DNA of 64,000 nucleotides from an uncultured bacterium (GCA_963710755.1 CAVQBK010000001.1:160001-224000); one strand, 5' to 3'; shown: positions 5,454 to 35,940, numbered from the stretch's first letter. Numbers and translations: made by a program. The notes: generated by a model not told the origin, from the letters alone.

Positions 5454-5972
5454 ATGATGAGTAAGTGGTTTGGCACATGTATGATCTTATTAGCCGCAGT
5501 GGCGCTGAACGCCCTGGTTCATGGCGTGGATGTGGTTGTCCCTGATATAGCGGGTAATACTGGCGCCGGCCAGACTGGTATTAGTCAGCCTGCAGACAAA
5601 GCCCAGGAACAGGGCCCTAAAAGCATTGAGCAACCTGTTTATACTAAAAATAACCCTCTGGCCGATTTTCAAATCCATTTTTTTATATCATTGCCCTTTA
5701 CGGCTTTATACAGCTATCTGGCTGTGAGTTCTATGGACGCCATTGTGCAAGGGCAATATCCCACGGCTTTTCGAACCACCAATTCGTGGATGATTATAGG
5801 CTTGGCTGTGGGCTCTTCTCTGGCCATTGCTTTGGGCAATATTGGCAGAGTGCCCGACCAATCAGTGCCTGTCTTGGCCTCGGGATTGAATTGGCAGGAG
5901 GCCCGTGAAGCTGAGCCGAGTGATAACGTGGTCGTGGCAGAAAAAATGGAATTGTTGAGAATTTTGTATTAG
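5454..5972 (+). CDS. Hypothetical exported/membrane protein
   Basis: Signal-like N-terminus and two hydrophobic segments; GAGG upstream. Confidence 0.6.
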   Translation: MMSKWFGTCMILLAAVALNALVHGVDVVVPDIAGNTGAGQTGISQPADKAQEQGPKSIEQPVYTKNNPLADFQIHFFISLPFTALYSYLAVSSMDAIVQGQYPTAFRTTNSWMIIGLAVGSSLAIALGNIGRVPDQSVPVLASGLNWQEAREAEPSDNVVVAEKMELLRILY

Positions 5973-7996: not shown

Positions 7997-8043
7997 GTAG
8001 TGCTCGTTGTGGAAAATCCTCTTTTTTATAAAGGACAGTATTT

Positions 8044-8069
8044 GTAGGCGCACGGCCCTCCGTGCCCTT
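8044..8069 (+). repeat. Degenerate GTAG-type REP palindrome
   Basis: GTAGGCGCACGG-CCCT-CCGTGCCCTT; relatives at 44624, 47553 and 60934. Confidence 0.5.
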
Positions 8070-8257
8070 GTAAAATTACTTTTTATTTAAAGAGGGGATA
8101 AGGGCATAGTGTTCCTTCGAGACGGGCATCAATAACCATACGCTCCTACATAGAGTCCTATAGGAACAATGAGGCTTTCCACAGTAGAATCTAAGTGGGT
8201 TTTTACCTGCTTGATATAATCAGGCTGCGCTTACTACTGCTATGAGGGAGATTTTTA

Positions 8258-9625
8258 ATGGACTTATTTGAACAAGCCCTGTCTCACGATAATCCCCAAG
8301 CTCCCTTGGCTGATCGCATGCGCCCGCAGGAATTAGATCAAGTACTGGGGCAAGCGCATCTTCTTGACCGCGGTAAGTTTTTAAGATCTGCTATTGAAGA
8401 AGACCGGCTGCCTTCTCTGATCTTTTGGGGCCCGCCGGGCACCGGCAAAACCACCCTGGCCATGGTTATTGCCAAGCATTCGGGAGCTCGCTTTCAATCC
8501 TATTCCGCAGTCACCTCAGGGATTAAGGAATTAAAGGCCGTCATGGAACAGGCTAGAACCCATTTGGCCTACCAGCATCAAAAAACCATTTTATTCATCG
8601 ATGAGATCCACCGTTTTAACAAAGCCCAACAGGACGCTTTTTTGCCCTTTGTAGAACAAGGGATCGTCACCCTAATTGGGGCCACAACGGAAAATCCGAG
8701 TTTTGAAGTCAACGCCGCTCTCCTTTCGCGCTGTCAGGTGCTGGTACTGAAGGCCCTGGATCGGGAATCTCTCGTAGCATTGATGCAGCGCGCGTTGGAG
8801 GATAAACAACGGGGGTTGGGTGCATTAGAACTTGCCTTTGACGAGAAAGCCCTCAGCCTAATAGCACAGAAAGCTTACGGTGATGCGCGGGCTGCTTTGA
8901 ATCAGTTGGAACAGGTAGCCAATTTCTGTGCCCAAACTCCACGGTCCAGGTCGATTCAAGTGGAGGATGTGGAAGAAGCGCTGCAGGAAAAAGCCCTGCT
9001 CTATGACAAAGGCGGGGAAGAACACTATAATCTTATTTCGGCCCTGCATAAATCAGTACGAGGGTCTGATCCGGATGCCGCTTTATACTGGCTGGGACGA
9101 ATGCTCGAAGCTGGTGAAGATCCACATTATCTCTTGAGACGAATGGCACGGATGGCCAGTGAAGATATCGGCCTGGCTGATCCCAACGCACTCCATATGG
9201 CGGTCTCAGCACGGCAAGCCTTTGACTTCGTCGGTCTGCCGGAAGGCAAACTAGCCTTGGCAGAATTAGTGGTCTATCTTTGTCTGGCGCCCAAAAGCAA
9301 TACTCTCGAGGTGGGCTACAACGCCGTCCAAAAGGCCATCAAACAGCAGGGCCCCCTGCCCGTGCCCATGCACATCCGTAATGCCCCCACCGGTTTGATG
9401 CGCAACTTGGGCTATGGCAAGGATTATCATTATGCCCATGACTTTGAAGGCCATTGGGTGCCTGACGACTATCTGCCGGAAGAGCTTAGGGATGAGCGCT
9501 TTTTTCAGCCTGGGTCTATGGGGTGGGAGGGTAAAATGAAACCCCTTCTTGAACAACGGCTGGAAAAAAGGGCTAAAACCAGAAAATCATTCTCTCCCGC
9601 TGATCCTCATAACCATCAGAAATAA
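8258..9625 (+). CDS. rarA: Replication-associated recombination protein A (AAA+)
   Basis: [57 protein letters not shown]. Confidence 0.96.
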
Positions 9626-9783
9626 AAACAAAGTTGCCTTTAATCCATGGCTATTCCTCTGGGAATTTCAGTTAAATACCAAGGCTCTATAATTTCACCT
9701 CCCGTGGGACAAGTTGGTTAAGACAGGGACGCCGGCCGACGATAATACCTGTAATGATCTCCATATTAATGGCCTGACGCAGG

Positions 9784-10551
9784 TTGATGACGGCCGAACG
9801 GGAGTCTATGCCCATGGGCTTGCAGGGTCAACGCCGGAAAACACCTTGGTATGTGATAACGGAAATTATCTTTTTTATATTACCGCTGGCCGGATTGTGG
9901 ACTACCTTGAAAAAGATGAATCGCCGTGCCTTTGGTCTGACCCTGGTTATCATCATGGTCCTGGGTTACAGTTGGAGTATGCTGGTGTCCAGTCATGGTT
10001 GGTGGCAATTTAACCCCCAGACCATGCTGGGCTGGCAGGTTTTACCACATTTACCGCTGGAAGAAGCCTTGTTCTATCCCTTGGGAGGTGCGCTCAGCAT
10101 TTTGGTGTATGGATTTCTGGCTGATAAAATGGCTAATCCTCGTTGGAAATCCTTGGGATTTTACTTTCTTTTCCTGGCCTTAACGCTGGTGGTTCTGGGA
10201 GCGGCTACCACGGCGGTGGCGAATAATTTTCATCCTGCCTATATCCTCAGTCAGGTGGTGCTTTACAACGGCCTGGCGTTGCTTCTCTGGCCGGTGGCAG
10301 GCCCCAAATTCCACCTGCCCGGGCTGTTGGTCACTATCGTTATCTTAACTGCTGTTGGAGTTTTCTGGAATTATGTGGGATTTACCCAACGCCTTTGGTG
10401 GTACACGGCTGTTTTGGGGTGGAACTGGCCCAAAGCAGTGCCTGTGGATGACTGGAATTTTTATATTTTTGCACCCCTGGCTGCAATCTCGCTGTATATA
10501 TTGTTGGATTCCAAGCATAGCCGCCGGTCAACCCATCCAGGGGATTTATGA
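9784..10551 (+). CDS. Integral membrane protein with two lycopene-cyclase-type (CrtYc/CrtYd-like) repeats
   Basis: GWWQF...LG...LPLEEALFY and LWWY..VLG....VPVDDWNFY resemble the W.F..lG..PxEE motif; start uncertain. Confidence 0.7.
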   Translation: MMTAERESMPMGLQGQRRKTPWYVITEIIFFILPLAGLWTTLKKMNRRAFGLTLVIIMVLGYSWSMLVSSHGWWQFNPQTMLGWQVLPHLPLEEALFYPLGGALSILVYGFLADKMANPRWKSLGFYFLFLALTLVVLGAATTAVANNFHPAYILSQVVLYNGLALLLWPVAGPKFHLPGLLVTIVILTAVGVFWNYVGFTQRLWWYTAVLGWNWPKAVPVDDWNFYIFAPLAAISLYILLDSKHSRRSTHPGDL

Positions 10552-10889
10552 TGCGTCCCTGGCCATGGTATTTTATGATGGACCTTATATTGTGGGGGAT
10601 AAGTCTGGCTTTGGTGAAATGGAGTTGGTCCAAGTTGAGCCGTTCTTGGAAAACAACAGCAATGGTCACTGCTACCTTGGTGATGGGATTGCAAACCTGG
10701 AATGAGTGGCTCAGCTTCAATGTCTATAAAGCTTGGGGGTTTTCCCAGGCCCATAATACTCTGCTGGGTATCCATTTCTTAGGAGCACCGGTGGAAGAAC
10801 ATTTGTTTTGGTACGCCTTTGCCTGGATGGTGCCTTTTTTGTATGCCCGCCTGGCTGGCGGAAAGGAAGCTCATGATGGCCGCGCCTAG
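10548..10889 (+). CDS. Lycopene-cyclase-domain small membrane protein
   Basis: AWGF....LLGIHFLGAPVEEHLFW; ATGA overlap with the upstream gene. Confidence 0.72.
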   Translation: MMRPWPWYFMMDLILWGISLALVKWSWSKLSRSWKTTAMVTATLVMGLQTWNEWLSFNVYKAWGFSQAHNTLLGIHFLGAPVEEHLFWYAFAWMVPFLYARLAGGKEAHDGRA

Positions 10890-11265
10890 TAGCCCACCAT
10901 CAAAACAGGCGCACCTGGCTTTGGATAAGGGATCAAGGAAACAACTCTACCTGATCTGGTGGGTGCTGGGCGTGGCGGCTCAAATCCTGCTCAGCCTGCC
11001 AATGGTGATGAAAACTATTTCCTGGAAGGCGGTTGGCTTGACCTCACTGGTGTTTGTCCCGCTCATGTTTGCGGTTGAAAGCGTCAGTGTTTATTGGGGA
11101 TGGTGGGTATGGAATGAAGATAAACTTTGTGGTCTTAAGGCGGGCTTTATTCCGCTGGAAGAGGTAGCTTTGTATTTTCTGGTAGTGCCGTCGGTGGCGG
11201 TGATGTTTCATCTTGTCTGCCGTCTGTTGAAAGCCGTTTTTCCCAGCTTGAAGGCAGACAATTAA
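10873..11265 (+). CDS. Lycopene-cyclase-domain small membrane protein
   Basis: E..SV.WGWWVW...LCG..AGFIPLEEVALY; AAAGGA RBS. Confidence 0.72.
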   Translation: MMAAPSSPPSKQAHLALDKGSRKQLYLIWWVLGVAAQILLSLPMVMKTISWKAVGLTSLVFVPLMFAVESVSVYWGWWVWNEDKLCGLKAGFIPLEEVALYFLVVPSVAVMFHLVCRLLKAVFPSLKADN

Positions 11266-11303
11266 AATCCGGCAAGTAGCATCGAAAGGAAGGACTTGGA
11301 AAA

Positions 11304-11825
11304 ATGAATTTTCTTTATGCATGGCGTGGGGAACTATACACCCTGGCAAGCATTGTTTCGACTTGGTTTGCCATTAAATGGATTTTTAAAAAGAATCCGA
11401 CCATTTATATGCTGGCCGGGGCTCTGGTAGGTCTGGCCAATGAGTTTATGACCGAGCCGCTTTGGACTTACCATATGCAGTTTTACTTATGGCGGGACAT
11501 CTCGCCGTTCACTATTCTGGGATGGGGCCCGCTTTTTGCCATTATAGTGCTTGGCTCGGAAGCACTTTATAAAAAGTTGTTCCCTTCCAGTCCAGTGCGA
11601 AATTGGAAAATTATTCTTACTGATTTAATGGTGGGAGCGCCTTTGATGGTGGCAGGCGAGACTTTGGGACTAAGGGTGCTGCACATCTGGGAATATAATA
11701 GTGTCCTGCAATGGCATGCTATGGTGCCCTTGATTAATTACCCCTTGGCCGGACTGGTCAGCATGGCCTTTTTCATTATGGCCATGCCGGCTGTTGTGCG
11801 CTACTGGGCGGAGAAAGGAGCCTGA
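11304..11825 (+). CDS. Membrane protein with two E..W.Y..P repeats (CruF/DUF2878-like)
   Basis: NEFMTEPLWTY...DISPFTILGWG and GETLGL...WEY...NYPL; paralogue of the next gene. Confidence 0.65.
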   Translation: MNFLYAWRGELYTLASIVSTWFAIKWIFKKNPTIYMLAGALVGLANEFMTEPLWTYHMQFYLWRDISPFTILGWGPLFAIIVLGSEALYKKLFPSSPVRNWKIILTDLMVGAPLMVAGETLGLRVLHIWEYNSVLQWHAMVPLINYPLAGLVSMAFFIMAMPAVVRYWAEKGA

Positions 11826-11826
11826 C

Positions 11827-12366
11827 ATGTGGACATTGGTGACGGCCTGGAGGTCTGAATTGCTCACGGTTTTGGCGTTTGCTTTTTCCTGGTGGTTTTT
11901 CAGTCGCATGCTGCACCTGTCTTTTTTAAAGACCTGGGTTCCCGGATTTTTACTAGGAGCAGCGGTGGAGATCATGACCGAGCCGGAATGGACTTACACC
12001 ATGCAATGTTACATCTGGCGTGATGTCTCGCCTTTTGTCATGATGGGATGGGGGATTATGTTTTCTTGGATGATATTATTTTCCGACAAACTTTACCGTA
12101 CTTTTTTCCATGTGACCATGTCAGAACGGGCGCCCCAGGATCCCCGATTATGGCTGACCGATGTGCTGGTGGGCCTGCCGTTTTTTTTAGGAAATGAACT
12201 TTTTGGACTTCATATTTTAAAGAGTTGGAAATATAATGCAGTTTTACAATGGACTACGATGCTGCCGGGTATTAATTATCCACTGGAAGGCTTGGTCGCC
12301 ATTTTATTTTTTAGTCTGGGACTACCGGCCGCAGTACGCTTTTGGAAAGGATACCCTGTGCCTTGA
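11827..12366 (+). CDS. Membrane protein, tandem paralogue of 11304-11825
   Basis: VEIMTEPEWTY...WRDVSPFVMMGWG and NELFGL...WKYNAVLQW...INYPL; AAGGAG RBS. Confidence 0.68.
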   Translation: MWTLVTAWRSELLTVLAFAFSWWFFSRMLHLSFLKTWVPGFLLGAAVEIMTEPEWTYTMQCYIWRDVSPFVMMGWGIMFSWMILFSDKLYRTFFHVTMSERAPQDPRLWLTDVLVGLPFFLGNELFGLHILKSWKYNAVLQWTTMLPGINYPLEGLVAILFFSLGLPAAVRFWKGYPVP

Positions 12367-14063
12367 AAGCCCTTGTCAACCTGGATGTTAAACTTCTGCG
12401 TCTTAGTATTTGGATCACCCTTGGGGCGGCCTTGTTGTTTCTGCCGGTACAGCACTTTTTTGTTCCACCTGCCACACGGCCCATGGTCTACGCAGCCTTG
12501 GGATTTACGCTGGTTTACACGGGCGTGTTGTTTCTGGGGTTTCATTTAAAAAAATACCGTTTAACCGCAATTGCTTTTGTTTTTTTTCACCTCATTACCG
12601 ATTCTTTTGCCATTAGCGCTCATCCGGACAATTTGTTGATTTATGCCTTCTTGCTGGTATTCCTGTTCATTTTTATCTTCAATATACTTCTGGTGCGTTG
12701 GCCGGAAGTGATCGGAAGTGATGTGGTACTGCTGGCGGGCGTGCTGGTTTATATGCTATGGCCGGTCACCGGATTCTTGGGAGCTTTGCGGGAATGGAAT
12801 GTGGATCCGGGATTTGGGGTCGGCGCTATATTTGTTTTTTTTAGTCTGCTTGCCCTATTGGGTACCGCTGCTATTGAGACTATCCGCAGGAAAGAAGAAA
12901 AACTAATCATCATTAATGCCAATCTTCACCGCTTGGTAGCCGAACAGGTAAATAAAATCATTCAGTCTGACAAGGAAAAGCGGGCTTATCAGGAACAGGT
13001 GGAGAGCATTTTGCGCCACATTCCCGTAGGCGTGGTCATTGTAGATCGGGAACTAAATGTGCTCTACAGCAATGGCGTGCACATCAAGGAAGCCCGAGCG
13101 CAGGGCCCTGATAATGACGACCAGGAATCAATATTGCCACAGGACGTGCTTAAAAGTGATTTGTTAAAAGCCAAATTTGATCTGGCCCTAAGTTCTCAAA
13201 AAAAATTGGTAGGGCAGCATTTTACTCATGTTGGAAAAAATGACCAGACGCGAATTATTCGTTATTCTTATGTGCCGGTTAATTTGGATCCCGACGATCA
13301 ACACCTAAAGCTAGTCTTGATCACCGAAGATATTACCCAGGAAGAAAATATGCGCGAAAAGTTGATGCGTACGGAGCATATGGCGGAAATGGGCAAGATG
13401 GCCGCCAATTTGGCCCATGAAGTTAATAATCCACTGGCGGGTATCAAGCTTTATTTGGAATTACTGGAACAGGGGATTGAAGATGACGGTAAACGCAAAC
13501 GTATTTTCACCATCCTTGATACCAGCATTGCCCGCATCGACAAGATTATCAAAGGTTTCTTAACCTTTTCCCGGCAGGAAAAAGCCCGGAAAGACCAGAT
13601 TAACCTGGCCGCGGTTATGAAAGAAACACTGGATATTGCTGTTGGATTTAAACCGTTGCATCATATTGATATTGACATTAACTTATCCAAAGACTTGCCT
13701 TTTGTTGCGGCTGACCGCTACAAAATGGGCCAGGTGTTTCTTAATTTAATCAATAATGCTAAAGATGCCATGCCCCAGGGCGGCCGCCTGCAGATATCCG
13801 CGCGTAGGGAGGAGGATCACATTGTCTTGGTGTTTGCAGATAATGGAATGGGTATTAAAAAAGAAGATGTTCCCCATGTTTTTACTCCTTTTTACACCAC
13901 CAAGGAAAGAGGTCATGGTACGGGTTTGGGCTTGTCTACCTGCTATGGGATTATTCAGGATCATGGTGGTACCATTGATGTCAGCAGTCGGGAAGGGGTA
14001 GGGACTACTTTCACGATAAAAATACCTATTGTCTTGACCAAGAAAGGATTATTCCATGGCTAG
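12363..14063 (+). CDS. Multi-TM sensor histidine kinase with PAS-like domain (NtrB-type)
   Basis: About 6 TMs, IPVGVVIVD, AHEVNNPL, QVFLNLINNA, DNGMG, FTPFYTTK, GTGLGL; TTG overlapping the upstream TGA (alternative start 12342). Confidence 0.92.
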   Translation: MKALVNLDVKLLRLSIWITLGAALLFLPVQHFFVPPATRPMVYAALGFTLVYTGVLFLGFHLKKYRLTAIAFVFFHLITDSFAISAHPDNLLIYAFLLVFLFIFIFNILLVRWPEVIGSDVVLLAGVLVYMLWPVTGFLGALREWNVDPGFGVGAIFVFFSLLALLGTAAIETIRRKEEKLIIINANLHRLVAEQVNKIIQSDKEKRAYQEQVESILRHIPVGVVIVDRELNVLYSNGVHIKEARAQGPDNDDQESILPQDVLKSDLLKAKFDLALSSQKKLVGQHFTHVGKNDQTRIIRYSYVPVNLDPDDQHLKLVLITEDITQEENMREKLMRTEHMAEMGKMAANLAHEVNNPLAGIKLYLELLEQGIEDDGKRKRIFTILDTSIARIDKIIKGFLTFSRQEKARKDQINLAAVMKETLDIAVGFKPLHHIDIDINLSKDLPFVAADRYKMGQVFLNLINNAKDAMPQGGRLQISARREEDHIVLVFADNGMGIKKEDVPHVFTPFYTTKERGHGTGLGLSTCYGIIQDHGGTIDVSSREGVGTTFTIKIPIVLTKKGLFHG

Positions 14064-14406
14064 ACGCCTTTTAGTGGTTGATGATGAAATGGTTATTCGC
14101 GATCCCATAACCATTTATTTGGAACAACTGGGGTATACAGTTGACCATGCGGAAAATGGTGTGGAAGCTCTGCATTTAATTTGTTCCAAAACCTATGATT
14201 TGGTGATTCTTGACATCAGTATGCCCTATATGAATGGCCATGAGTTGAGCCAAGCTTTGAAGGACGAAGGACAAACCGTGCCCATTTTGATTATTTCCGC
14301 CAAAGTGCCCAGCACGCCGCTCCATCAAGAGGCAGGCCGGCTCATCAAACCTTTTTCGTTGAAAGCTCTGGCCCAGGAAATCGAAAATATTTTAAACACT
14401 CCTTAA
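14056..14406 (+). CDS. Single-domain response regulator
   Basis: LVVDDE, DLVILDISMP.MNG, ISA, KPF. Confidence 0.92.
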   Translation: MARRLLVVDDEMVIRDPITIYLEQLGYTVDHAENGVEALHLICSKTYDLVILDISMPYMNGHELSQALKDEGQTVPILIISAKVPSTPLHQEAGRLIKPFSLKALAQEIENILNTP

Positions 14407-14567
14407 GTGTGCTATGATTAAACGCGCTTGGGTTGGGACGTCTTGTTGCGGCCGGCTGGTAGGTTGAATGAAGCTGAACAGGACGTTGGTTTTTAGACAA
14501 AGCGGACTTGACCATTCCGAAGAGATCTCAAAGCAATAATAGTATATCAGACGGGGGATTAGTGTTC

Positions 14568-14846
14568 ATGGCAAAAAAAGTCAATACCAAGCTTGAAAAA
14601 AAGCAGTTTTTTATGGGATTCTTTACGTTTTTAGGTGTTTTTTTGCTTTCTTACGTATGGGTGTTGTTTATTACCCCTATTCCTTATACCTCGGCCGGCT
14701 TATATGCCTTGATCAGCTTTTTAACGGGTGTGCTGGCCTCGGTAGTCTTGATATTTACACGTCATTCTCTAATGGGGTTAGGTGGTAGTTTGGCAGCAAT
14801 CCTCTATGTGGTTTTCTTCGCCGTGACCTGGAGTCTGGTGCGCTAA
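14568..14846 (+). CDS. Small 3-TM hypothetical protein
   Basis: Basic N-terminus followed by three hydrophobic helices. Confidence 0.6.
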   Translation: MAKKVNTKLEKKQFFMGFFTFLGVFLLSYVWVLFITPIPYTSAGLYALISFLTGVLASVVLIFTRHSLMGLGGSLAAILYVVFFAVTWSLVR

Positions 14847-16109
14847 GATCTTGAGGTCAAAACGATCGAGGCTGAACAGGAAACTGTTGCCGCCACGCTG
14901 ATTGACGGTGGTCCATAAATGACCCTGATGTTTGGCAATGATTTTTTGGCAAATGGCCAGCCCCAATCCGCTTCCTGTTTTTTTAGATGTTGACTTGATG
15001 CGGTAAAACTTTTCGAAGACCCGATTCCGCTGATCCTCGGTCAGGGGCGTTCCCAAATCATCGATCGAAAAAATGACCTTCTCACCTTTGCTGTAACAAT
15101 TAATATAGACTGGTGTTTGATCAGGAGCATATTTCAAGGCGTTGGAGATCAAGTTGGACAAGACTTGCAACAAACGAAGTTTATCCGCTTTGACCATAAG
15201 CGCCTTTTGGATCTGTTCCAATTGCACTCGATCCAACTGTCCCGGCTCACTGCCTTTGATGGAAGCCAAAGCTTCAGTGATCAAGTTAGCGCAGGAAACA
15301 GGTTCGAATTTCAGATCCAATTTATCCAATTCCAATTTGGTCAATACTAAAAGATCATTAATCATACGTTCGATATAACTGCTGTTCTTTTTAATGATGG
15401 TACTGAATTCCAATTGATCGTCGGTAAGGGGTCCCAGTTTGCCTTTCATGAAAAGTGTGGCGAATCCGCCGATGGAAGTGATAGGGGTGCGCAATTCATG
15501 GGCCACCATAGAAATGCTTTCCGAACGGGCCAATTCAGCTTCGCGCAACTCATCATTAGCTTTGCGTAATTGATCAGTTGTACTTCTTATTTCTTTTTCG
15601 AGTTCCTGATTAAAGGTTTCCTGGCGTTCAAAAGCCTTGGCATTGGCCAGGGCCGAGGCCAGCATAGTACTGATTTTTTCAAGCAGGGTTAAATCTTCTC
15701 CGGTAAAGACCGGGGTTTCGGCGTCGAGAGAAAGCTGGATAGCACCAATGGGACGGCCCTCCACCAGCAAGGGCAGGGTCATAAAATGTCCTTTCTCCTG
15801 TTCTTCGACTTGGTGGGAGGGAGCTGCCTGGGTTTGAGCATTCAAGATGGTGCGCTCACCCGTCGTGATTACCCATTGGGCCAAACCGCTGGCCGTATCA
15901 GGGCTCGATTTTTGAAGTAAATGGTCTTGAGCGTCCAAAGTAAAGGACTTTAGATCAGCGGCGGGTGCGGTTAGATAGAGAAAGACCTGAGCCTGGCGAT
16001 AGAGATCCTTTAAAGCCAGCAACCCATGGTAAATGACTTTTTTGACCCGCAGGGATTGGTGCAGCGATTGCGCCAGATCCAATAATTTCAACATTTGGGG
16101 AAGATACAT
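14778..16109 (-). CDS. Soluble GAF-domain histidine kinase
   Basis: GAF-like LPLLVEGRPIGAI..FT.EDL.LL; AHELRTP, NLISNALKY, FEKFYR, GSGLGL. Confidence 0.9.
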   Translation of the reverse strand: MYLPQMLKLLDLAQSLHQSLRVKKVIYHGLLALKDLYRQAQVFLYLTAPAADLKSFTLDAQDHLLQKSSPDTASGLAQWVITTGERTILNAQTQAAPSHQVEEQEKGHFMTLPLLVEGRPIGAIQLSLDAETPVFTGEDLTLLEKISTMLASALANAKAFERQETFNQELEKEIRSTTDQLRKANDELREAELARSESISMVAHELRTPITSIGGFATLFMKGKLGPLTDDQLEFSTIIKKNSSYIERMINDLLVLTKLELDKLDLKFEPVSCANLITEALASIKGSEPGQLDRVQLEQIQKALMVKADKLRLLQVLSNLISNALKYAPDQTPVYINCYSKGEKVIFSIDDLGTPLTEDQRNRVFEKFYRIKSTSKKTGSGLGLAICQKIIAKHQGHLWTTVNQRGGNSFLFSLDRFDLKILAHQTPGHGEENHIEDCCQTTT

Positions 16110-16310
16110 GCCAAAGACTCCGGGACAATCAGGTTAGGCCACGAATTAAATGCTACTGTGAACTGATGCGTTGTATTATACGGTAGCCGGTTTAGGAGAA
16201 CAACCTTTATTCCCGCTAATTAGGCCTGGACTGGTTTCTGGGCTATTGACATTTGGGGAGCAAGCGTCAATAATGATTCTCGCTTATCCTATCAGGGGGT
16301 CAACCGTTCG

Positions 16311-16697
16311 ATGGATCAACATATGTCGGATTTTATGAAATTGGACGATGATTTCGAGCTGTTTATAAAAGATTTTGTCAATACCTTCGTGAAATGGGAG
16401 TTGGTCCAATTTTTTCATGATCATCAGGAGGCGTCTTTTTCGCTTGATGACTTGTCCCAGAAATTGAACCGTTCTCCCAAAACACTTAAAAGCGAGATGG
16501 ATGAGCTGGTGGATAAAGGCTTTTTACAGACTCGCAAGGGCAAGGACGTCACTTATCGTTTGCTGGATTCCAAATCAATCCGCTATACGGAATTAACAGG
16601 ATTGTTGGAACGCTTTGTGGAATTTTGCAAAAGCCGTGAAGGCCGGCTGCGTGTTATTTATAAAATTCTCAAGGATGGCAAACCGCTCCAAAGTTGA
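16311..16697 (+). CDS. Small winged-helix-like protein
   Basis: SLDDLSQKLNRS...LDELVDKGFL....VTYRL pattern. Confidence 0.65.
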   Translation: MDQHMSDFMKLDDDFELFIKDFVNTFVKWELVQFFHDHQEASFSLDDLSQKLNRSPKTLKSEMDELVDKGFLQTRKGKDVTYRLLDSKSIRYTELTGLLERFVEFCKSREGRLRVIYKILKDGKPLQS

Positions 16698-16794
16698 ACC
16701 ATACTGGAATGGATTTCCTTGGAATGCTGGAGCTCACGGCGAAAAGTTGAAATAACAGGTTTGGACCAAACCGACAGGACCCGCAAAGCGTGAA

Positions 16795-16906
16795 TAATAC
16801 GCTGCCATGAATTACGGTGTATTTGGATATGAAAGGAAGAAAAATATTGTTTCTTTATTGTCGCTTGTTCCGCATTTAAGTAGGGAATGAAGCGAGGACG
16901 TATTAA
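16795..16906 (+). repeat. Full copy of the intergenic element, with terminal inverted repeats TAATACG...CGTATTA
   Basis: Aligns end to end with 22870-22986; two internal hairpins. Confidence 0.8.
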
Positions 16907-16923
16907 AATGGAGGCAAGCAAGT

Positions 16924-18483
16924 ATGGTTAGGGTTAAAGCTCAGTTTTGGGTTTATACAATAACGATTCTAGGAATCATAAATCTCCTGACCGGATGTAC
17001 CAATATTCAAGATCTTCAAAAGCAAATTCACTCTACCGCTGCGGCGGGCCACTATTTTCCTCAAAAAGCCAAAGATTTGAACGCCTTGCTAAAAAAAGCC
17101 TTTCAGGCAGCGCCCAGCCCCAAACTAGATGGCAACCCCATCGGGTTGATGGTACCCCATGGCGCTATGAAATATACGGGGGTTATCACGGCCATGGCCA
17201 TGCGGACCTTAACCCGTACGGACGTGGATACCATTTATATTCTGGGGACATCCCATTTTGCCAATGTTCGAGGGGCCATTACCTGGCAAGGCCAGGCTTG
17301 GCGCACACCTTTGGGTCTGTACGCCATTGATCAACAGGCCGTGCGCGAACTCCTGCGAGACTGCCCCTATATCCATCTATGGCCTTCAGCTTGGAAACAG
17401 GAGTACTCGGTGGATGTGCCCATACCCTTTCTCCAAACAGTGGCACCCAAGGCAAAGATGGTCCCCCTTATATTTGGCACCACCAATTGGGAAGAGACCT
17501 GGGCTATTGCCAGGGCCATCGCGGCCAATGCCAAAGGCAAGAAGGCCCTGGTGCTCATTTCGGTTGACCTGGCCCATTATCCCTCTGCCGAGGATAGCAT
17601 GGTCATCGACCGGCAAGTTTTAAGTACCATTCAGCGTTTTGATCCTTATGCTTTGGAAAAGCTGGATGCTCGGTTACTGGCCAAAGATATTCCTAATTTA
17701 ATATGCACCGTCTGTGGCTTAGCGGCCCTGAAAACCGGCATGGTGGCCACCAATTTGATGGGGGCCAATAAAATTCAAAAGATCCAATATGCCAATACAG
17801 CCATGATTGCAGGCAAGAAGACCAAGGTCGTGGGGTACGGCAGTCTGGCTTTCGTTAACGATCCCCAACAATCGCCGGTCACCCTGGTAGAGAAACATCC
17901 AAGTCAGGAATCTGTCCGGTGGCATGAAGCAGATATTCAGGAACTTCTGGACATTGCCCGTGCGGCGATTGTCGAAGGTATTGCCACGGGCAAACAATTG
18001 CGCCCTACCACCGCCAACCCCAGGCTCCTGGAGAAACATGCTGTATTCATTGAATTGACCAATCGGGACGGTGATGTCAGAGGCAGTATGGGGGTTATGG
18101 AACCGCGATTACCTTTATACCAGAGTGTGGCACAAATGGCCGTGGCCGCAGCATTTAAAGATCCCCGTTATGATCACATAAAAGCATCGGAACTTCCTGA
18201 CCTCAATATTGAGTTGTCCTTAATTTCACCTTTAAAACCCATAAGCGATGTGGGGGAAATTAAGCTGGGGCAGGAGGGTGTCTTAATTAGAAGAGGCAGA
18301 CGGGAAGGGTTTTATTTTCCGCAAGTGCCTATCCAAAAAAAATGGTCCAAAGAGGAGTTGTTAACCAACCTTTGCCTCCAAAAAGCCCGATTGCCTGAAA
18401 AGGCTTGGCAGGAGAAAGGGTCCCAGCTTTATGTTTTTACAGTGAGGTCTTTTAAACAGCCTGCACCAGGGCGAAATCCATAG
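16924..18483 (+). CDS. MEMO1 (AmrB)-AMMECR1 (AmrA) fusion with a putative lipoprotein signal
   Basis: AAAG.YFP, VPHG..YTG, W.TPLG, PFLQ, DLAHY, CG; C-terminal AVFI.L...RGSMG, AAFKDPRY, FPQV, LC.KA; LTGC lipobox. Confidence 0.85.
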   Translation: MVRVKAQFWVYTITILGIINLLTGCTNIQDLQKQIHSTAAAGHYFPQKAKDLNALLKKAFQAAPSPKLDGNPIGLMVPHGAMKYTGVITAMAMRTLTRTDVDTIYILGTSHFANVRGAITWQGQAWRTPLGLYAIDQQAVRELLRDCPYIHLWPSAWKQEYSVDVPIPFLQTVAPKAKMVPLIFGTTNWEETWAIARAIAANAKGKKALVLISVDLAHYPSAEDSMVIDRQVLSTIQRFDPYALEKLDARLLAKDIPNLICTVCGLAALKTGMVATNLMGANKIQKIQYANTAMIAGKKTKVVGYGSLAFVNDPQQSPVTLVEKHPSQESVRWHEADIQELLDIARAAIVEGIATGKQLRPTTANPRLLEKHAVFIELTNRDGDVRGSMGVMEPRLPLYQSVAQMAVAAAFKDPRYDHIKASELPDLNIELSLISPLKPISDVGEIKLGQEGVLIRRGRREGFYFPQVPIQKKWSKEELLTNLCLQKARLPEKAWQEKGSQLYVFTVRSFKQPAPGRNP

Positions 18484-18537: not shown

Positions 18538-19149
18538 ATGATAGTTTTATTCGGCCTGCTTTTGGGGGCGTCCTTGGCAACCTATCCTGTTTTATCCTCA
18601 TCATCGCTTGGCTACGCTTTTCCCAACATTAATGGCCAAGTTTCAGCTCGCCCTACTTTTGGGCGGGTTTTTCGTTTTTTTATTGGACGTTATTTGGGAA
18701 CGCTTTTGTTGGCCATGATTTGCAGCACTGTTGGCGTTTTATTTAAAATGGAATGGACCCAACGTCTGCTGTTGGTGGGATTGATTTTCCTTGGGATTTT
18801 TATCATCCTTTATGCCCTTACCAATGATTCGCCGGAGCTCATTTTAGCGAAAAAAAGTGATGTTACGGGCACGTCCTTACCCCTCATACTCCTGGGATTT
18901 TTGTCTGCTTTTATACTGGCAGCACCCAACATCATTGCGATTTTATGGGTTTTTTTCAATTTTAATTTACAAACAAATTATATTTTTTTTACAAATTTAT
19001 TTCTCGGCCATATGCTCTTTTTTTTACCCTTCCTTTTAAACCGAACCTGGTCAAATAGCCGATTTTACTATTATTTTGCAAGGACAATCCTTATTTTTAA
19101 CGGATGTGTGGTGTTGTTTTATAGTGTGAAGAACCTGTTGTTAAAATGA
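18538..19149 (+). CDS. Polytopic membrane protein (DsbD_2/TauE-like, divergent)
   Basis: About 6 TMs; FFIGRYLG.LLLA resembles the lGR motif; AT-rich. Confidence 0.55.
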   Translation: MIVLFGLLLGASLATYPVLSSSSLGYAFPNINGQVSARPTFGRVFRFFIGRYLGTLLLAMICSTVGVLFKMEWTQRLLLVGLIFLGIFIILYALTNDSPELILAKKSDVTGTSLPLILLGFLSAFILAAPNIIAILWVFFNFNLQTNYIFFTNLFLGHMLFFLPFLLNRTWSNSRFYYYFARTILIFNGCVVLFYSVKNLLLK

Positions 19150-19588: not shown

Positions 19589-22500
19589 ATGAAACACCAA
19601 TTCTGCATTGCCAGCATCTTTAAAAAAAGCTTTCTTTTTCTTTCTTCTCTGGCCATCCTGGCCACACTCTGTTTTGTGGTTACAACACCTAGCTTTGGTA
19701 AGGAATTCACCGATGATTTGACCACCGACTTCTATGGCGGATCGGAAGATAATATCATCATCCGCCAAAACCTGAAAGGCAGCCTGCAATTGGCGCCGTA
19801 CGCAGTTCTGGGCAATTGGAATGCAGTTAATGCACCGTCGAGTGCCTCGCTGTATATGGCGTCCACCACTGTTTATAATGGGAAATTATATTTAAGCGGC
19901 GGCTTTGGCAACGCTGACTCGGGAGGCCTTAATAATACAGGCACTGATAATGCTATTAATAAAATCTGGTACGCCACTGTTCTGGCGGACGGAAAAATTG
20001 AAGAATGGAAACCAATCGATGAGACATCACGATTGCCACAACCCACCTATGGTCATTCTTCCACGGTAGTGAATGGCCGTTTATATATTATCGGCGGCAG
20101 CAATTCGGTTGATAAAAAACCGGTCAGCTCTGTTTACTGGGCCAAAATCATCGGCCATGACGGGAGCATCAAGGCTTATTACAAGTCCAATACTTGGACA
20201 GCCGTAGCTTCCTTGCCAACGCCCTTATTTAAAGCAGCTGCCGCTCAATATGAAGGCCGGATTTATGTGGCCGGTGGCATTGATTCGTCCAATGTGGCCC
20301 AAAATGTTGTGTATTATACGGATGTTCACCCTGATGGTGATATCACGGCCTGGCAAACCGCCAGTGCCCAGCTTCCTGGCAATTTGGCAGGTCATTCCAT
20401 GGTGCAGAGCAATGGCCGGCTCTATGTAGTAGGGGGCTCCACCACCGGGGAACAAATCAATGCTACTAATAGTGTTTATATCGGCAATATCGATCCCACG
20501 ACAGGAGATGTGGTCAGCTGGACTACCGCTACCAGCCTGCCGGAAGCCTTATTTGGGGCGGCTGCGGCTGTTTCTGCCGGTAAAATCTGGGTCAGCGGCG
20601 GCATTGTCTCCGGAACCGCCAGAGCTAATGTTTATTATGCACTTATCGACCGCCTAGCCGGTCTGATTCCGGGTCCCGGACAACCCGATACATGGACCAG
20701 AACCACTGATTTACCGATACCCCTTTACAATCATAATATGGTGGCCTTTAATGGCCGTTTATTTATTACAGGCGGTTATAATGCCGGAGCCAGCGATAAA
20801 TGTTATACCAGCACCCTTTTAAGCAATAAAACCAATATCAAAAAATGGGAGCCAACCACATCTTTATTTATTTCTGAGTATGGGGAAGGCAGCTTAAAAA
20901 CCTGGACCGGTCATACGGCTATTCTAAGGGTGCCTTTGCAGCAATCGTCATCTTCGTCTGTCGGATCACCCCAGGTTTATGTGCTGGGCGGCGGATCGAA
21001 TAGCTATAGTGCCTACGCTGACGGACAGGCTTTTACCGGGGCTGCTCGACCTGAGGCCTACTCGACCATATACAATGCGGCTATAGATTCCAATGGCGAG
21101 TTGAAGACTTGGAAAGCCGAGGACTCTGCTGGAACCATTCCTGTGGCCAGCATCATGCATATGTCCACGCTCTGTAATGGGGCGATGTACGTCATTGGGG
21201 GTGCCAATTCACTTAATGCCACCATCTGGGCCGATGCCCCGGCGGGTTCAATAACTGCTGTAGGCAACACCGCCACGCCAACGTCGCAAGCTATTGCCTA
21301 CGGTGAAACCATGGTTTTTTATGAGCAGGTAAAACAAGGGGGAACCAGCAGTGGCGGTTCTGCCGGCACTATTGAAAAAACAGCGCCCATTCCCATTTTT
21401 GATCCCAAATATGAATTTGATACTTATAATACAATCCGTGGATTACCTGCAGCCGATCCTTTCCCCGCAGTAAATGCTAAAACAAGTGAGCCCATATATC
21501 AACCCTTGATACGTGCTGCCGTGACCTCCTACAACGGCTATATTTATGTTATTGGCGGTATTTCCAGGGAGAATGATGATTGGGATACGGTCAATACACC
21601 AAATTTACCCATATCCAGCAGACGCTATTTTGAAGACAGGGTATGGTATTGCCGACCCAATCCTTCTGGGAGTATCAATGAGTTTGGTGGTCCCGGCGGA
21701 TGGAAAAACACGACAGCCTTATCCCCTACGATCCATGCCTCTGATTTAGTACCACTTTATGATGCCCAAGCTTGTGTGGCTTATGGCCGGATTTATCTCT
21801 TTGGCGGCCGTGATGCCAGTGGTGTTGTGCGATCAGAAGTGTATTATGCCCGTATTCTGGATGACGGCACCTTGGGGGCTTGGATAGAGGATACCCCTAT
21901 GCCCACCACTTTGGCGGAGCATCAAGTGGTCTTCACTTCCGGCCGCTTTTATGTAATAGGTGGGGTTATTGATGCTGCCGGTAATTTGACGGACGATGTT
22001 TTTTATTGTACCCCTGCTGCTCAAGTGGCCCTGGATACGCCTTCCATTCCTACGGTATCTAATCCAGGCGCCTGGGAATTATCTTTAACGGCCTTGGAAT
22101 ACCCTGTGGCCGGCCATCAATGTGTGAGTAACAATGGCTATATTTATCTGTTGGGCGGACGATACAATCCCACGGATCCGCACACCTCCAGCGCTTACCT
22201 TACCAATATTGCAGATATGTATCATACTCAAACTTTGGTTTTTGCCTGGGCAGGCAATTATGAACGTTATGTAGATCTTGACAAAGATCAGTTGGTGCAA
22301 TTTATCAACTGGGATGCCTTACCCAACAATGAAACCATACGATTCCGGTATCGCTATGCTTTGGAAAAGGGGCAGTGGTCTCCCTGGACCTTATCCCAAT
22401 CCCTGGGACCTGTTAATGTAAACCATTTCTGCCGCTATATCCATTACAAGGTCCATTTTGAAACCCTGACCAATGATCCTGCTAACTTTGCCAATACACC

Positions 22501-22852
22501 GGAAATCTCCAGGGTCTTCATTGATTATGCAGCCTCAAAACGAGTAGATGAAGATAACTTCCAGATCAATCACAACAAATTTGATCCTCAGGTGCAATCT
22601 CTGACTGTTTCTTATAAAACCCGTGATCATAGCGTTGATGGCGTGGTTATCCGTGTATACAATCTTGAAGGTGAAATGATTAAAAAACAGGAGTTTGCCA
22701 TTGCGCCGGGAACAATCTTGCCGGTCACTGGTTCCTGGATTTGGGATGGCACCAATGACAATGACGAATTGGTGGCCAATGGTGTTTATATTATTCAGTA
22801 TAATTCTGGTAATACCCACAAAATCAGAAAAGTGGTTGTTTATAAACAATAA
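19589..22852 (+). CDS. Secreted Kelch-like beta-propeller protein with C-terminal FlgD-Ig/T9SS-like sorting domain
   Basis: Signal peptide; about a dozen GRLY..GG...VY...W...LP repeats; ends IRVYNLEG..WDG.N..ELVANGVY.....KVVVYKQ. Confidence 0.85.
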   Translation: MKHQFCIASIFKKSFLFLSSLAILATLCFVVTTPSFGKEFTDDLTTDFYGGSEDNIIIRQNLKGSLQLAPYAVLGNWNAVNAPSSASLYMASTTVYNGKLYLSGGFGNADSGGLNNTGTDNAINKIWYATVLADGKIEEWKPIDETSRLPQPTYGHSSTVVNGRLYIIGGSNSVDKKPVSSVYWAKIIGHDGSIKAYYKSNTWTAVASLPTPLFKAAAAQYEGRIYVAGGIDSSNVAQNVVYYTDVHPDGDITAWQTASAQLPGNLAGHSMVQSNGRLYVVGGSTTGEQINATNSVYIGNIDPTTGDVVSWTTATSLPEALFGAAAAVSAGKIWVSGGIVSGTARANVYYALIDRLAGLIPGPGQPDTWTRTTDLPIPLYNHNMVAFNGRLFITGGYNAGASDKCYTSTLLSNKTNIKKWEPTTSLFISEYGEGSLKTWTGHTAILRVPLQQSSSSSVGSPQVYVLGGGSNSYSAYADGQAFTGAARPEAYSTIYNAAIDSNGELKTWKAEDSAGTIPVASIMHMSTLCNGAMYVIGGANSLNATIWADAPAGSITAVGNTATPTSQAIAYGETMVFYEQVKQGGTSSGGSAGTIEKTAPIPIFDPKYEFDTYNTIRGLPAADPFPAVNAKTSEPIYQPLIRAAVTSYNGYIYVIGGISRENDDWDTVNTPNLPISSRRYFEDRVWYCRPNPSGSINEFGGPGGWKNTTALSPTIHASDLVPLYDAQACVAYGRIYLFGGRDASGVVRSEVYYARILDDGTLGAWIEDTPMPTTLAEHQVVFTSGRFYVIGGVIDAAGNLTDDVFYCTPAAQVALDTPSIPTVSNPGAWELSLTALEYPVAGHQCVSNNGYIYLLGGRYNPTDPHTSSAYLTNIADMYHTQTLVFAWAGNYERYVDLDKDQLVQFINWDALPNNETIRFRYRYALEKGQWSPWTLSQSLGPVNVNHFCRYIHYKVHFETLTNDPANFANTPEISRVFIDYAASKRVDEDNFQINHNKFDPQVQSLTVSYKTRDHSVDGVVIRVYNLEGEMIKKQEFAIAPGTILPVTGSWIWDGTNDNDELVANGVYIIQYNSGNTHKIRKVVVYKQ

Positions 22853-22869
22853 TCAAGGTTCTCAAGAAA

Positions 22870-22986
22870 TAAAATACCTCGCCATTCATTGGGGAGTATT
22901 TGGATAGCAGCGGAAAAGAAGATCATTATTTTTATGGTCGCTTCATCTCTGTATTGAAATACGGGGAATTCGCGAGGACGTATTAA
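22870..22986 (+). repeat. Full copy of the intergenic element, upstream of the PorV-like gene
   Basis: AATACCTCGCCAT..GTATTTGGATA..GGAA..GTCGCTT..TTGAAATAC..GCGAGGACGTATTAA; the end overlaps the AAGGAG RBS. Confidence 0.8.
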
Positions 22987-22996
22987 GGAGATCAAT

Positions 22997-23944
22997 ATGC
23001 GCAGAACGGCATTTATTTTCATGATGTTAATGGCACTCCTGGCCGGGCAAGTTTGGGGAAGAGGTGTGGGCACCTCGGTCATGAACTTCCTTAAAGTAAC
23101 TCATGGTCCGCGGTTTGACGGCATGGGAGGCGTAGGTGTGGCGCTAGTGGACGATATCAACAGTATCACCTGGAACCCGGCAGGTCTATCTCATCTGGCT
23201 CCTGATTATTTTGATGCGTCTTTTGAACACGATTTCTGGATTGGTGATATTGAATATGAAGCCCTTAATTTTGCTACTTACTTGGGGGACACCTACGGTG
23301 GAGGGCTGCAGTTGCTCTATCGGCATATGCCTGATATTGACAATGATTTAGCCGATGAGCAACCGCAAAAAGTTTGGGATTTTGCAGGCACCCTTGGTTT
23401 GGGAATCACTATTACCAATTTTTCGGTGGGGGTAAATTTAAAAGCGATTGCTTCTCAGCTGGGAGACGCCCAACTGATGGGCATTGCCGGAGATTTGGGT
23501 ATGCAGATCAGGTTCATGGAAGATAAATTCAGCGTCGGCCTGGCCGTACAGAATTTGGGACCTGATATTAAGACAGATTCCCTGCCCCTGTTTATCCGTG
23601 GTGGTATTGGTTACAAAGATTCCTTTGGCTCTAAAAAACAACATGAGCTTCTGGGGGCTTTCGAGATTAATCAGCCCTTGGATAACAAATTGGTGATCAG
23701 ATTGGGCGCTGAATATTGGTATGCCAAAACAGTAGCCGCACGGGTAGGTTACGTGCAACAGATTGGTGCTGATGACTTGCAGTCAGATAAATTTTTGGAC
23801 CGTCTAACCTGGGGCGCCAGTGTGCGCTGGGCTGATTTGCAGATTGATTACGCTTTTATTCCTTTTGCAGATTTGGGTTCAGTGCATAAACTGGCGTTGA
23901 AATTGCATTATGGCCCGCTGACCGATACAGTGGAAAATTTCTGA
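22997..23944 (+). CDS. PorV/PorQ-family outer-membrane beta-barrel
   Basis: FLK...[38 protein letters not shown]. Confidence 0.85.
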
Positions 23945-23957
23945 CAGGGAGTATCCG

Positions 23958-26138
23958 GTGAAATTGATCAGTGAACGGATGAAAATTGTTTTTTTTATCA
24001 CGGCTGTCTTCTTGGGGGTCAACACCATAACGTTGGCGGCCACCGCGATTTATCGTTCCGTTGGGCCCGGCAATAGTTCCGCTTTGGCTGATGATAATGG
24101 TGGAACCAATGATTTAAATATTACCAATGGGATCATCACTTTTTCGGCTTCCGTGGCAAACAATATCGGCGTTGGTGATGTGGTGCAATACAATGACGGC
24201 AGTTTTCACATTGTGTTTATTCATGACCGCATTAATTCCACTCGATTTCAAGTTCGCAGCGCCGATGGGACGCTGCCTTCTGATGTGGCGTCCAATAGCA
24301 GTTGGTCCATTTTCCGGGCCTACACATCTTTGAATAATGCTGTGAATGGAACGGAAAACAGCGTCATCGACGGATCAGTAAACGATTTTGATAGTGGCGC
24401 GCGTGATCTCACGGTCTATAACGAGGTTTGGAATATCGCTTGTTATAATGATGGTATTGACAGCACGGTAGTTAAGATTTCTTCCTGGACCACGTCGTCC
24501 ACTCAATATTTACATATTTTTACACCTTATGATGCAACCCAAGTGGGCAGCTCCCAGCGTCATAATGGGGTTTGGACCAATGGAGCCTATCGATTGATTT
24601 TAAACAACAAAAACGCTCTACAATTGGATACCAATCATATCCTGATCGAAGGACTGCAAATTCAAGTTTCCGGCGTCAATAATACTGACCAAAGCGCCAT
24701 TTATTTGAAAGGTCAAACCGGTCCGACTGAAATTAAAATAACCGGATGTATTTTGCAAGGTGCCAATGACAGTGGGAATAATAAAAATGGTCATTGGGGA
24801 GTTCAGACCGATTCAACCAACGTCAACGGCAATATTATTATATGGAACAACATTATTTACGGTTTTTTAGGTGATAATGCCCATTCGGATAATGGCGGGT
24901 TGGGTCTTAAATATGGCAACCAAAATTATTTTATCTACAATAATACGGTCGATAATTGCAAGCAAGGCATTTTATTATCATCCGGTACGGCCGAAGCGAT
25001 AAATAATATTACTCAAAATTGCAGTGACGGGTTTGTCGGACTTTTTTCGGCAACTTCCGATTATAATCTCTCCGATATTAATAATGATGCGCCCGGAACC
25101 CATTCCAAGAACAATGCTGCCGTTAATTTTGTGGGGGCTTCAGACTATCATTTGGCCCCATCCGATACCAGTGCCAGAGCTTCGGGACTGGAGCTTTCCG
25201 GCTATGGAAGCTATGCCTTTAATGATGATATTGACCGGCAAAGCCGCAGCTGGCGTTGGGATATGGGTGCTGATGAGCAAACCTTGGCCGCCAATCCAAC
25301 CTATACGCCAACCTATACGGATACACCAACTTTTACACCAACCTTTACACCGACCATTACGCCTACAAGTACCGTAACCCTTACATTTACACGCACGATC
25401 ACAAAAACCCATACGCCCACTGTTACTCATACGCCGACGTTCACGCCGACGTTCACACCCAGTGCGACCTTGACCGCTTCACCTACGTTTACACATACAC
25501 CCACGGCTTCACCCACCTTTACCCATACGCCTACGGTGACGCCGACTTTTACCCGTACGCATACGCCAACGGCTACGCCTACCTTTACCCATACGCAGAC
25601 AGCCACACCAACTAAAACAGTGACCGCCACCAATACCCATACTCCTACGGTAACACCCACCAGGACAGCCACGCCGACCTGTACACATTCTCCCACCATT
25701 ACTGCAACCTCTACGCACACACCTACCTTTACTTCTACTAGTACCATGACGCCGACGGTAACTGTCACGCCCACGTTTACTCATTCGGCGACATCTACCA
25801 ATACACCTACCGTGACCCCGACCAGCTCACCGACCACTACCGCTCAACCCAGCGAATCCTTGGCCAAAGTAGTGGTTTTTCCTAACCCTTATATAGAACA
25901 TAAGGAAAATTACCGAACCATCAATTTTATCTATCTAACCTTTAATGCGAAAATTCGCGTGTATAATCTGGCCGGGAAACTGGTATGGGAAGCGGAAAAA
26001 AATGATGGTTCCGACCGTATCGGCTGGATTGGCGTAAAAAATAATGAAGGCCAAAAATTGGCTTCCGGCGTTTATATTTATATGATTACCAATAGGCAAG
26101 GCGAGAAGAAAACAGGCAAAATTGCAATTTTGAGATAA
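23958..26138 (+). CDS. Secreted beta-helix protein with Thr/Pro linker and T9SS type-A-like C-terminal domain
   Basis: Signal peptide; NNII/NNT beta-helix turns, DYHL..S.A...[12 protein letters not shown]; CTD VFPNP..IRVYNL.G.LV..LASGVY..KIAILR. Confidence 0.85.
25297..25845 (+). repeat. Coding low-complexity tandem repeat (T-P-T-F/V, T-H-T-P linker)
   Basis: About 180 codons of TPT[F/V/A]T[H/P] units. Confidence 0.9.
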
Positions 26139-26184
26139 GCGGCAATGACCCATGCACAGCACCCTCACGAAGGAGGATAGGATA

Positions 26185-29536: not shown

Positions 29537-29610
29537 TCACGGTAGTGAGCGGCAGTACTTAATCAATCTGGTTGAAAACGATAAGATTATAAGACGGGAG
29601 AAGATGTCCC

Positions 29611-32823: not shown

Positions 32824-32825
32824 CC

Positions 32826-35927: not shown

Positions 35928-35940
35928 CAGGAGTGTAATT

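Follow-up and report, generated by a model that had tools for sequence, protein, structure and literature searches.

The lycopene cyclase (LC) domain is known from carotenoid enzymes. Lycopene beta-cyclases of the CrtYc/CrtYd type (PF18916, TIGR03462) work by acid catalysis and need no cofactor, and they occur in carotenoid producers in both fused and split forms. CruF, the other family relevant here, is a carotenoid 1,2-hydratase. In this study we analyze a stretch of 64,000 nucleotides from an uncultured bacterium (GCA_963710755.1, CAVQBK010000001.1:160001-224000; hereafter the window) in which LC-domain proteins are encoded together with a sensor histidine kinase and a stand-alone receiver. 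The module consists of seven close-packed open reading frames (ORFs), all on the + strand, at 9814-14406 of the window (9784 if the earliest start of the first gene is used). Its genes are called here A to E, kinase, and receiver.

Like the CrtYc/CrtYd cyclases, proteins A to C match the family over nearly the full domain length, keep its PxE(E/D) acids, and come in a fused (A) and a split (B, C) form. Unlike them, the module has four domains per operon instead of two, its scores lie at or slightly below the family cut-offs, and it is locked to a kinase and a receiver. The crtB, crtI, and crtE genes that accompany CrtYc/CrtYd proteins of carotenoid synthesis were found neither in the window nor in the flanks of the related loci.

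A second group of described systems comprises kinases with little more than membrane helices as sensor, such as BceS with BceAB, LiaS with LiaF, and DesK. The kinase of the module resembles these in having a sensor made of helices with short loops, and in sharing an operon with membrane proteins. It differs from BceS-BceAB and LiaS-LiaF in that its partners are LC-fold proteins and not ABC transporters or LiaF-type proteins, that it combines six helices with a PAS-like domain, and that the regulator is receiver-only. Pairing of LC-domain proteins with an intramembrane sensor kinase was not found in full-text searches of the literature outside subscription journals and supplements, and the papers listed on the topic dealt with carotenoid pathways and fungal meroterpenoids only. 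LC-domain proteins and two-component systems are both known, and what the module adds is their unusual and conserved coupling, together with a very rare accessory family.

Genes A, B, and C Match the Lycopene Cyclase Domain

On the basis of profile matches, A, B, and C are LC-domain proteins, with A a predicted fused LC pair and B plus C a predicted split one. A scores above the cut-offs of both Pfam Lycopene_cyc (PF18916; 28.2 bits, cut-off 27) and TIGR03462 (56.3 bits in two stretches, cut-off 39.4). B (E-value 2.2e-5, 25.4 bits) is slightly below and C (E-value 8.8e-5, 23.5 bits) below the Pfam cut-off, each covering nearly the entire 92-position profile, and both are below the TIGR03462 cut-off (26.6 and 29.7 bits). 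The assignment is strengthened by the orthologues: 26 of the 27 A, B, and C proteins from the window and eight related loci match Lycopene_cyc at E <= 0.01, over approximately positions 3-90 of 92. This includes eight of the nine B proteins (one at the cut-off) and all nine C proteins (three at the cut-off). In profile-profile comparisons (hhalign) the N half of A matched its own C half with a probability of 96.5%, and the N domain of A was matched by B (79%) and C (93%). The first-pass annotation, made from the sequence by itself, had described five lycopene cyclase/CruF-like proteins. That description stands for A to C, and the CruF likeness of D and E is weakly supported (see below).

The acidic PxE(E/D) motif, hallmark of the family, is found in each LC domain, and all four PxEE/PxDD repeats that had been pointed out earlier were located. 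P82-x-E84-E85 (LPLEE) and P211-x-D213-D214 (VPVDD) of A are invariant in 15 sequences. So are, in nine sequences each, N52-E53 and P81-x-E83-E84 (APVEE) of B, and E69, W80-N81-E82, and P94-L-E96-E97 (IPLEE) of C. W55-S56 and W186-N187 of A are also present and invariant in its orthologues (9-15 sequences at 45-53% identity in the motif alignments of A to C). Together with W80-N81-E82 and E69 of C, these are the residues that the first-pass annotation quoted for what it gave as the usual W-D position of the family. Comparison of A with its closest relative, the orthologue of locus L001, to which it is 81% identical, gave a ratio of non-synonymous to synonymous substitution rates (dN/dS) of 0.145, which indicates that the genes are real. 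Invariant family motifs together with purifying selection on A fit retained catalysis.

A word-index search with A returned 17 clusters, including A itself, among 4150 candidates. The other 16 clusters are 45-85% identical to A and no LC protein more distant than 45% identity was among the candidates, so that the A subfamily appears set apart. A tblastn search of A against plasmids was a dead end, giving one match (E-value 0.05) to a Granulicella hypothetical protein with uninformative neighbors.

Because the lycopene cyclase domain is the only family matching A to C, it would be conceivable that the module performs ordinary carotenoid tailoring. A and B plus C would then be lycopene cyclases and D/E perhaps a hydratase, fed by crt genes located elsewhere, while the kinase and receiver would share the transcript or regulate something unrelated. 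We regard this as rather unlikely. The coexistence of fused and split forms agrees with it, since both are known among carotenoid producers, but two LC domains suffice in known cyclases and four are kept here, the A subfamily is set apart from other LC proteins in the search above, and no crt gene lies within ~10 kb in eight loci. The linkage to the kinase bears on the same question and is presented next.

The Array Is Linked to a Two-Component System in Related Loci

In a pattern scan of one genome per species, made with the alignment of A, 16 stretches matched, and nine of them were confirmed as related loci (L001-L009). They come from candidate division FCPU426, from one genome labeled 'Firestonebacteria', and from other uncultured genomes; several of the word-index clusters of A also carry the FCPU426 label. 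FCPU426 is a rare and poorly represented candidate phylum (PMC10434106).

B and C directly follow A on its 3' side in all eight loci that extend past A, as determined by tblastn (L001 ends inside A, and L002 inside the E-like gene). The kinase comes after the array in 7/7 loci that reach far enough, and the receiver adjoins it in six of these seven. Thus, co-occurrence of the array with the kinase, one of the checks named in the first-pass annotation, was observed in every informative locus and in three upstream contexts. MgsA is the upstream neighbor in the window and in L002-L007, with DUF1015 upstream in five of these six loci. In L008 and L009 the position is taken by DUF488 and, after it, a 2TM or PNPOx-like gene. 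In L001 an ORF of at least 841 amino acids (aa) without Pfam family (3-2528, +) takes the place of MgsA. Downstream, the 112-aa ORF or the Memo-AMMECR1 gene described in the last section recurs in three loci (L003, L005, and L006), while L008 and L009 have PAP2, TrpD-type, and PilZ genes. Gene order and tight junctions of the module are kept across all three upstream neighborhoods.

These data speak to carotenoid tailoring in two ways. In six of the nine loci (L002-L007) the synteny with the window extends beyond the module (DUF1015, MgsA, 112-aa ORF, Memo-AMMECR1), and linkage to the kinase could thus be inherited and not selected. In L008 and L009, however, the kinase is still attached in spite of the different neighborhood, with module junctions that are overlaps or gaps of <=6 nucleotides (nt).

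In the window, neighboring genes of the module either overlap or are at most 38 nt apart, and the junctions are comparably tight in the related loci. A and B overlap by ATGA, with the B start codon on the A stop codon, and B and C overlap by 17 nt. Gaps of 38 nt and 1 nt separate C from D and D from E. Provided that the kinase starts at 12363, E and kinase are joined by a TTGA overlap, and kinase and receiver overlap by 8 nt. Read from the sequence in this way, the junctions bear out that the array runs into a PAS kinase with about six transmembrane segments and a receiver through ATGA/TTGA overlaps and gaps under 40 nt. The five consecutive small membrane ORFs are likewise all present on the + strand and rich in Trp (5.4-9.7% of residues in A to E). 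The module is probably a lineage-specific, co-translated operon (Table 1). Scans for signals around it were uninformative: terminator-like sites numbered 8 versus 10.0 +/- 3.1 in shuffled sequences, and promoter-like sites 20 versus 11.7 +/- 3.7 (~2.2 standard deviations), the latter scattered and in part inside genes. No Rfam family was found in 8000-17000 of the window.

Table 1. Genes of the module, with positions counted from the first nucleotide of the window.
Feature	Position	Strand	Remarks
Gene A, fused two-domain LC membrane protein (predicted)	9814-10551	+	245 aa; other possible starts 9784, 9787, 9808
Gene B, single LC domain (predicted)	10548-10889	+	113 aa; APVEE
Gene C, single LC domain (predicted)	10873-11265	+	130 aa from ATG 10873, or 148 aa from TTG 10819; IPLEE
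Gene D, membrane protein of the D/E family	11304-11825	+	173 aa; extra, more diverged copy
Gene E, membrane protein of the D/E family	11827-12366	+	179 aa, or 190 aa from TTG 11794
Sensor histidine kinase	12363-14063	+	566 aa from TTG 12363, or 573 aa from TTG 12342
Stand-alone receiver (REC-only response regulator)	14056-14406	+	116 aa

The Kinase Has the Predicted Build of an Intramembrane Sensor

The kinase has HisKA (54.4 bits) and HATPase_c (97 bits) domains, and a PAS-like region in which PAS_4 scores 22.2 bits, below its cut-off of 23.1. A hydropathy scan placed six hydrophobic segments in its N-terminus (residues 7-171), with no more than 16 residues between neighboring segments. By this measure its predicted build is that of an intramembrane sensor, a class defined by the lack of an extracytoplasmic domain between the helices. 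The membrane part (residues 1-190) matched no Pfam family at E <= 1e-3. Among eight orthologues the H-box His352 is invariant, as are membrane-part residues including R13, P28, H87, W113-P114, P134, and G137, with fewer invariant positions in the membrane part than in the cytoplasmic part. The receiver (Response_reg, 79.4 bits) has no output domain, and seven orthologues retain its acidic pair, its phospho-acceptor stretch YDL(I/V)ILD, and its later Lys. Kinase and receiver therefore show the elements of a two-component system: the HisKA His with HATPase_c on one side, and a receiver domain with the ILD Asp on the other.

An order of membrane enzymes, polytopic kinase, and regulator, joined by overlapping junctions, is reminiscent of the agrBDCA and comQXPA systems, in which a modifying enzyme precedes a polytopic kinase and a regulator, and in which ComQ also handles an isoprenoid. 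By this logic, LC-type enzymes would make a cyclised or hydrated isoprenoid as a self-signal, to be read by the kinase. The lower number of invariant positions in the kinase membrane part would also be in line with it. On the other hand, the module differs from agrBDCA and comQXPA in having no peptide precursor gene, in the family of its enzymes, and in a receiver that lacks a DNA-binding domain. Neither a small precursor gene nor an exporter is found within the module, and no autoinduction loop can be drawn because of the missing DNA-binding output. We thus consider a self-signaling role highly improbable.

D and E Belong to a Very Rare Accessory Family

D and E are tandem paralogues, 43% identical to each other (E-value 5e-48). 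The E..W.Y..P repeats ascribed to them earlier are there: each protein has E...W-x-Y twice in addition to YPL(A/E)G. Single-copy genes of other loci are 42-50% identical to D and 50-61% to E (tblastn), by which comparison E is the predicted orthologue of the single D/E-family gene in related loci and D a diverged extra copy. One E-like gene lies between C and the kinase in five of eight loci. L003, L004, and L007 lack it, and there C and the kinase are spaced by 100-132 nt. Two copies are present in the window only. A tree of concatenated A, B, C, and kinase puts the loci that lack the E-like gene at two separate positions. The D/E family is accessory and not part of the module core. The five-gene array proposed in the first-pass annotation has thus to be reduced to A-B-C, which is kept in 8/8 loci.

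The family is very rare. An exhaustive profile search of 1.84 billion representatives gave 32 clusters at E <= 1e-3, 11 of them at E <= 1e-10. One of the 32 is a 2071-aa beta-helix protein and probably spurious, and none is a kinase-length fusion. A word-index search with D found a single non-self relative, a 140-aa fragment of 62% identity.

Neither D nor E matches a Pfam or NCBIfam family at E <= 1. This includes Caroten_synth (PF04240, CruF), of which they are not members by this test, and DUF6989 (PF22497). What they share with both families is that they are small and polytopic with conserved buried acids, and that distant D/E members have sub-threshold matches. When 25 of the 32 relatives were scanned against Pfam (seven shorter matches of 86-155 aa were omitted), five matched Caroten_synth with E-values of 3e-4 to 8e-3, all below the 25-bit cut-off, and four matched DUF6989, none at the cut-off. 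Within the 18 closer members the sub-threshold matches were one to Caroten_synth (E-value 0.0047), two to DUF6989, and one to Lycopene_cyc (E-value 0.37). These 18 members share Y57, W75-G76, S86, D112, E124, W134-x-Y136, W142, P147, and P152 (numbering of protein E) as invariant residues, and G44, E48, D66, G116, and R171 as nearly invariant ones (>=90%).

Further indication came from hhalign comparisons of halves and domains, which were probably run in global mode. The C half of D/E matched C with an E-value of 2.4e-4 and B with 7e-4, in an alignment of NE...W-x-Y...YPLEG against E...WWVWNE...IPLEE. Controls with kinase membrane halves gave 0.39-0.77, and the true LC pair B-C merely 0.039. 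The N half of D/E did not match the LC domains (E-values 0.16-0.97), and the whole D/E profile compared with A gave a probability of 3.8%. Weak profile matches in relatives, the C-half alignments, the order of secondary structures, and a common best structural match weakly link D/E to LC/CruF proteins. It is thus plausible that D/E are remote members of an LC/CruF kind of fold, although every formal membership test failed.

Predicted Structures of A and E

AlphaFold2 models were obtained for protein E with a mean predicted local distance difference test (pLDDT) score of 92.9 and for A with 88.5. The E model has five long helices and two short W-x-Y strands, and the A model seven long helices. 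Their local order is the same: a long helix leads into a short W-x-aromatic strand, after which come a short helix, short strands, and a helix that begins at the P-x-acid motif. In a Foldseek search of 350,542 chains from the Protein Data Bank (PDB) no match at E <= 1e-3 was found for either model. The best match for both was MvINS (4xu4, 4xu6), a mycobacterial Insig homologue, with E-values of 0.11 and 0.24 and template modeling scores of 0.41-0.51. MvINS is polytopic and of similar size (189 residues versus 179 for E and 246 for the A model), but the superpositions have root mean square deviations of 6.9-12 A at 11-13% identity with no sequence match, which makes it a lead only. Agreement of A and E on MvINS hints at a shared lipid-pocket fold in the models, neither match being significant alone. 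Human Insig in complex with Scap was found at rank 47 among the Foldseek matches for A. Sequence searches of the PDB with the D/E and A profiles gave 0 matches and one at E-value = 1, to a GFP fusion. The ESM Atlas returned unnamed clusters, or AF_1327 at a 26% share, with scores of 0.82-0.90, which we treat as leads only.

It would also be conceivable that the LC-fold proteins are not catalysts. They might instead bind a membrane lipid and inform the kinase by direct contact, much like the accessory proteins of intramembrane-sensing kinases or like Insig, which reports sterols. Such a role would agree with the operon coupling to a kinase without loops, with MvINS as the best PDB match for both models, and with the presence of four LC domains when pathway genes were not found nearby. 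Yet the Foldseek matches are not significant, the strict invariance of PxEE/PxDD is what would be expected of a working acid catalyst, and LC-kinase fusions were not found among 8000 candidates (weak evidence). Prediction of a complex of A, B, and C with the kinase membrane part (residues 1-185) scored 0.00, with no verdict either way. On balance we find a non-catalytic co-sensor improbable.

A Possible Function in Isoprenoid Lipid Sensing

The explanation that we favor, and propose tentatively, is that the module encodes an LC-type enzyme set that modifies the end groups of isoprenoids, and that this set is functionally coupled to a two-component system that senses within the membrane. From the families, conservation, and gene linkage that were observed, we infer catalysis, substrate, kinase input, and output as follows. 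A and B plus C would be membrane-embedded, acid-catalytic enzymes of the CrtYc/CrtYd type, and D/E a dispensable helper or a second activity. The buried invariant acids (PxEE/PxDD, and the NE or E that comes earlier in each domain) would protonate the terminal C=C of a long, membrane-dissolved isoprenoid, possibly a carotenoid or a different polyprenyl chain whose biosynthetic genes are located elsewhere. The end group would be cyclised and, by D/E, perhaps hydrated. From inside the bilayer, the kinase may read the substrate, the product, or a membrane property changed by these enzymes, and would then phosphorylate the receiver, which may work by protein contacts and not by DNA binding.

Several observations weigh against this explanation. 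The Pfam scores are borderline, with just 7/27 A, B, and C proteins reaching the curated cut-off of 27 bits. Phytoene synthase or desaturase, polyprenyl synthase, and squalene cyclase families were found in 0/50 window ORFs scanned with Pfam, which are housekeeping, efflux, secretion, and regulatory genes, and isoprenoid backbone genes in 0/67 ORFs from the flanks of eight loci (up to ~10 kb on each side, less at contig ends). With no backbone gene in window or flanks, there is no substrate in sight. The statement of the first-pass annotation that carotenoid backbone genes are lacking is accurate for the 64-kb window and these flanks, and applies to these stretches only, not to genomes. No regulated target can be named either, since the receiver has no output domain, and in L008 the receiver itself is missing, with a convergent PAP2 gene coming next. 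The E-like gene has been lost at least twice, as judged from its absence at two separate places of the tree, and longer, fused forms of A, including the LC-kinase fusion mentioned above, were absent from the same 8000 candidates (again weak evidence). Finally, because six of the nine loci are syntenic and all come from one narrow uncultured group, conservation of gene order may partly be due to descent.

It was originally suggested that the array either makes or binds a signal sensed by the kinase, and this may be its function. In its more specific form, the loop-less kinase with its six helices would constitute, together with the proteins of LC fold, one intramembrane device that reads an isoprenoid lipid, these partners either making the ligand or holding and presenting it. 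To this form we assign a rather low probability. If it were true, the module would represent a two-component system with a terpenoid lipid as input, handled by cyclase-fold partners. More generally, if the link between array and kinase is functional, it would provide an entry to the sensing or control of membrane isoprenoid lipids by bacteria, widen the known uses of the cyclase fold, and give the rare D/E family its first context. The lineages that have the module are few and all uncultured.

Other Genes in the Window and in Related Loci

The receiver is followed by a 112-aa ORF (14508-14846, +) that contains three hydrophobic segments and matches no Pfam family. With 61-73% identity to its counterparts in L003, L005, and L006, it is the best-conserved small gene of the neighborhood. 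At its 3' end it shares 69 nt with the end of a convergent gene for a GAF histidine kinase (14778-16109, -). It was considered as a module member and rejected, being located 3' of the receiver in just 3/7 loci. Further downstream, a 519-aa protein joining Memo-like and AMMECR1 domains (16924-18483, +) has ~50% identity in L005 and L006.

In the related loci, a PAP2-superfamily gene (lipid or polyprenyl phosphate phosphatase type) is located convergently and directly 3' of the module in L008 (13701-14840, -) and L009 (14095-15930, -). It is the only lipid-related neighbor in the flanks, and no counterpart adjoins the module in the window. L004 (5428-8499) and L007 (5123-8508) have an insertion between DUF1015 and MgsA, with genes for a TonB-dependent receptor and for an ABC substrate-binding protein, and they have genes for alpha-2-macroglobulin and a class A penicillin-binding protein after the receiver (13593-20710 in L004 and 13580-20667 in L007).

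Elsewhere in the window, four ORFs of 172-369 aa on the + strand (5454-5972, 18538-19149, 52071-53180, and 62110-62805) did not match any Pfam family at the thresholds applied, and at 50925-52071 no ORF of at least 110 aa is listed and no Rfam family was found. At 19589-28095 (+), the gene for a Kelch-repeat protein of 1087 aa precedes UPF0164/PorV-like, CHU_C (type IX secretion signal), PorV-like, and OmpA genes, a set that looks like a cargo-plus-secretion group. Next to it, an efflux operon (28154-37896, +) combines the gene for a membrane-fusion protein with those for two AcrB-type pumps in tandem (1070 and 1033 aa) and for a long outer-membrane factor of 651 aa.

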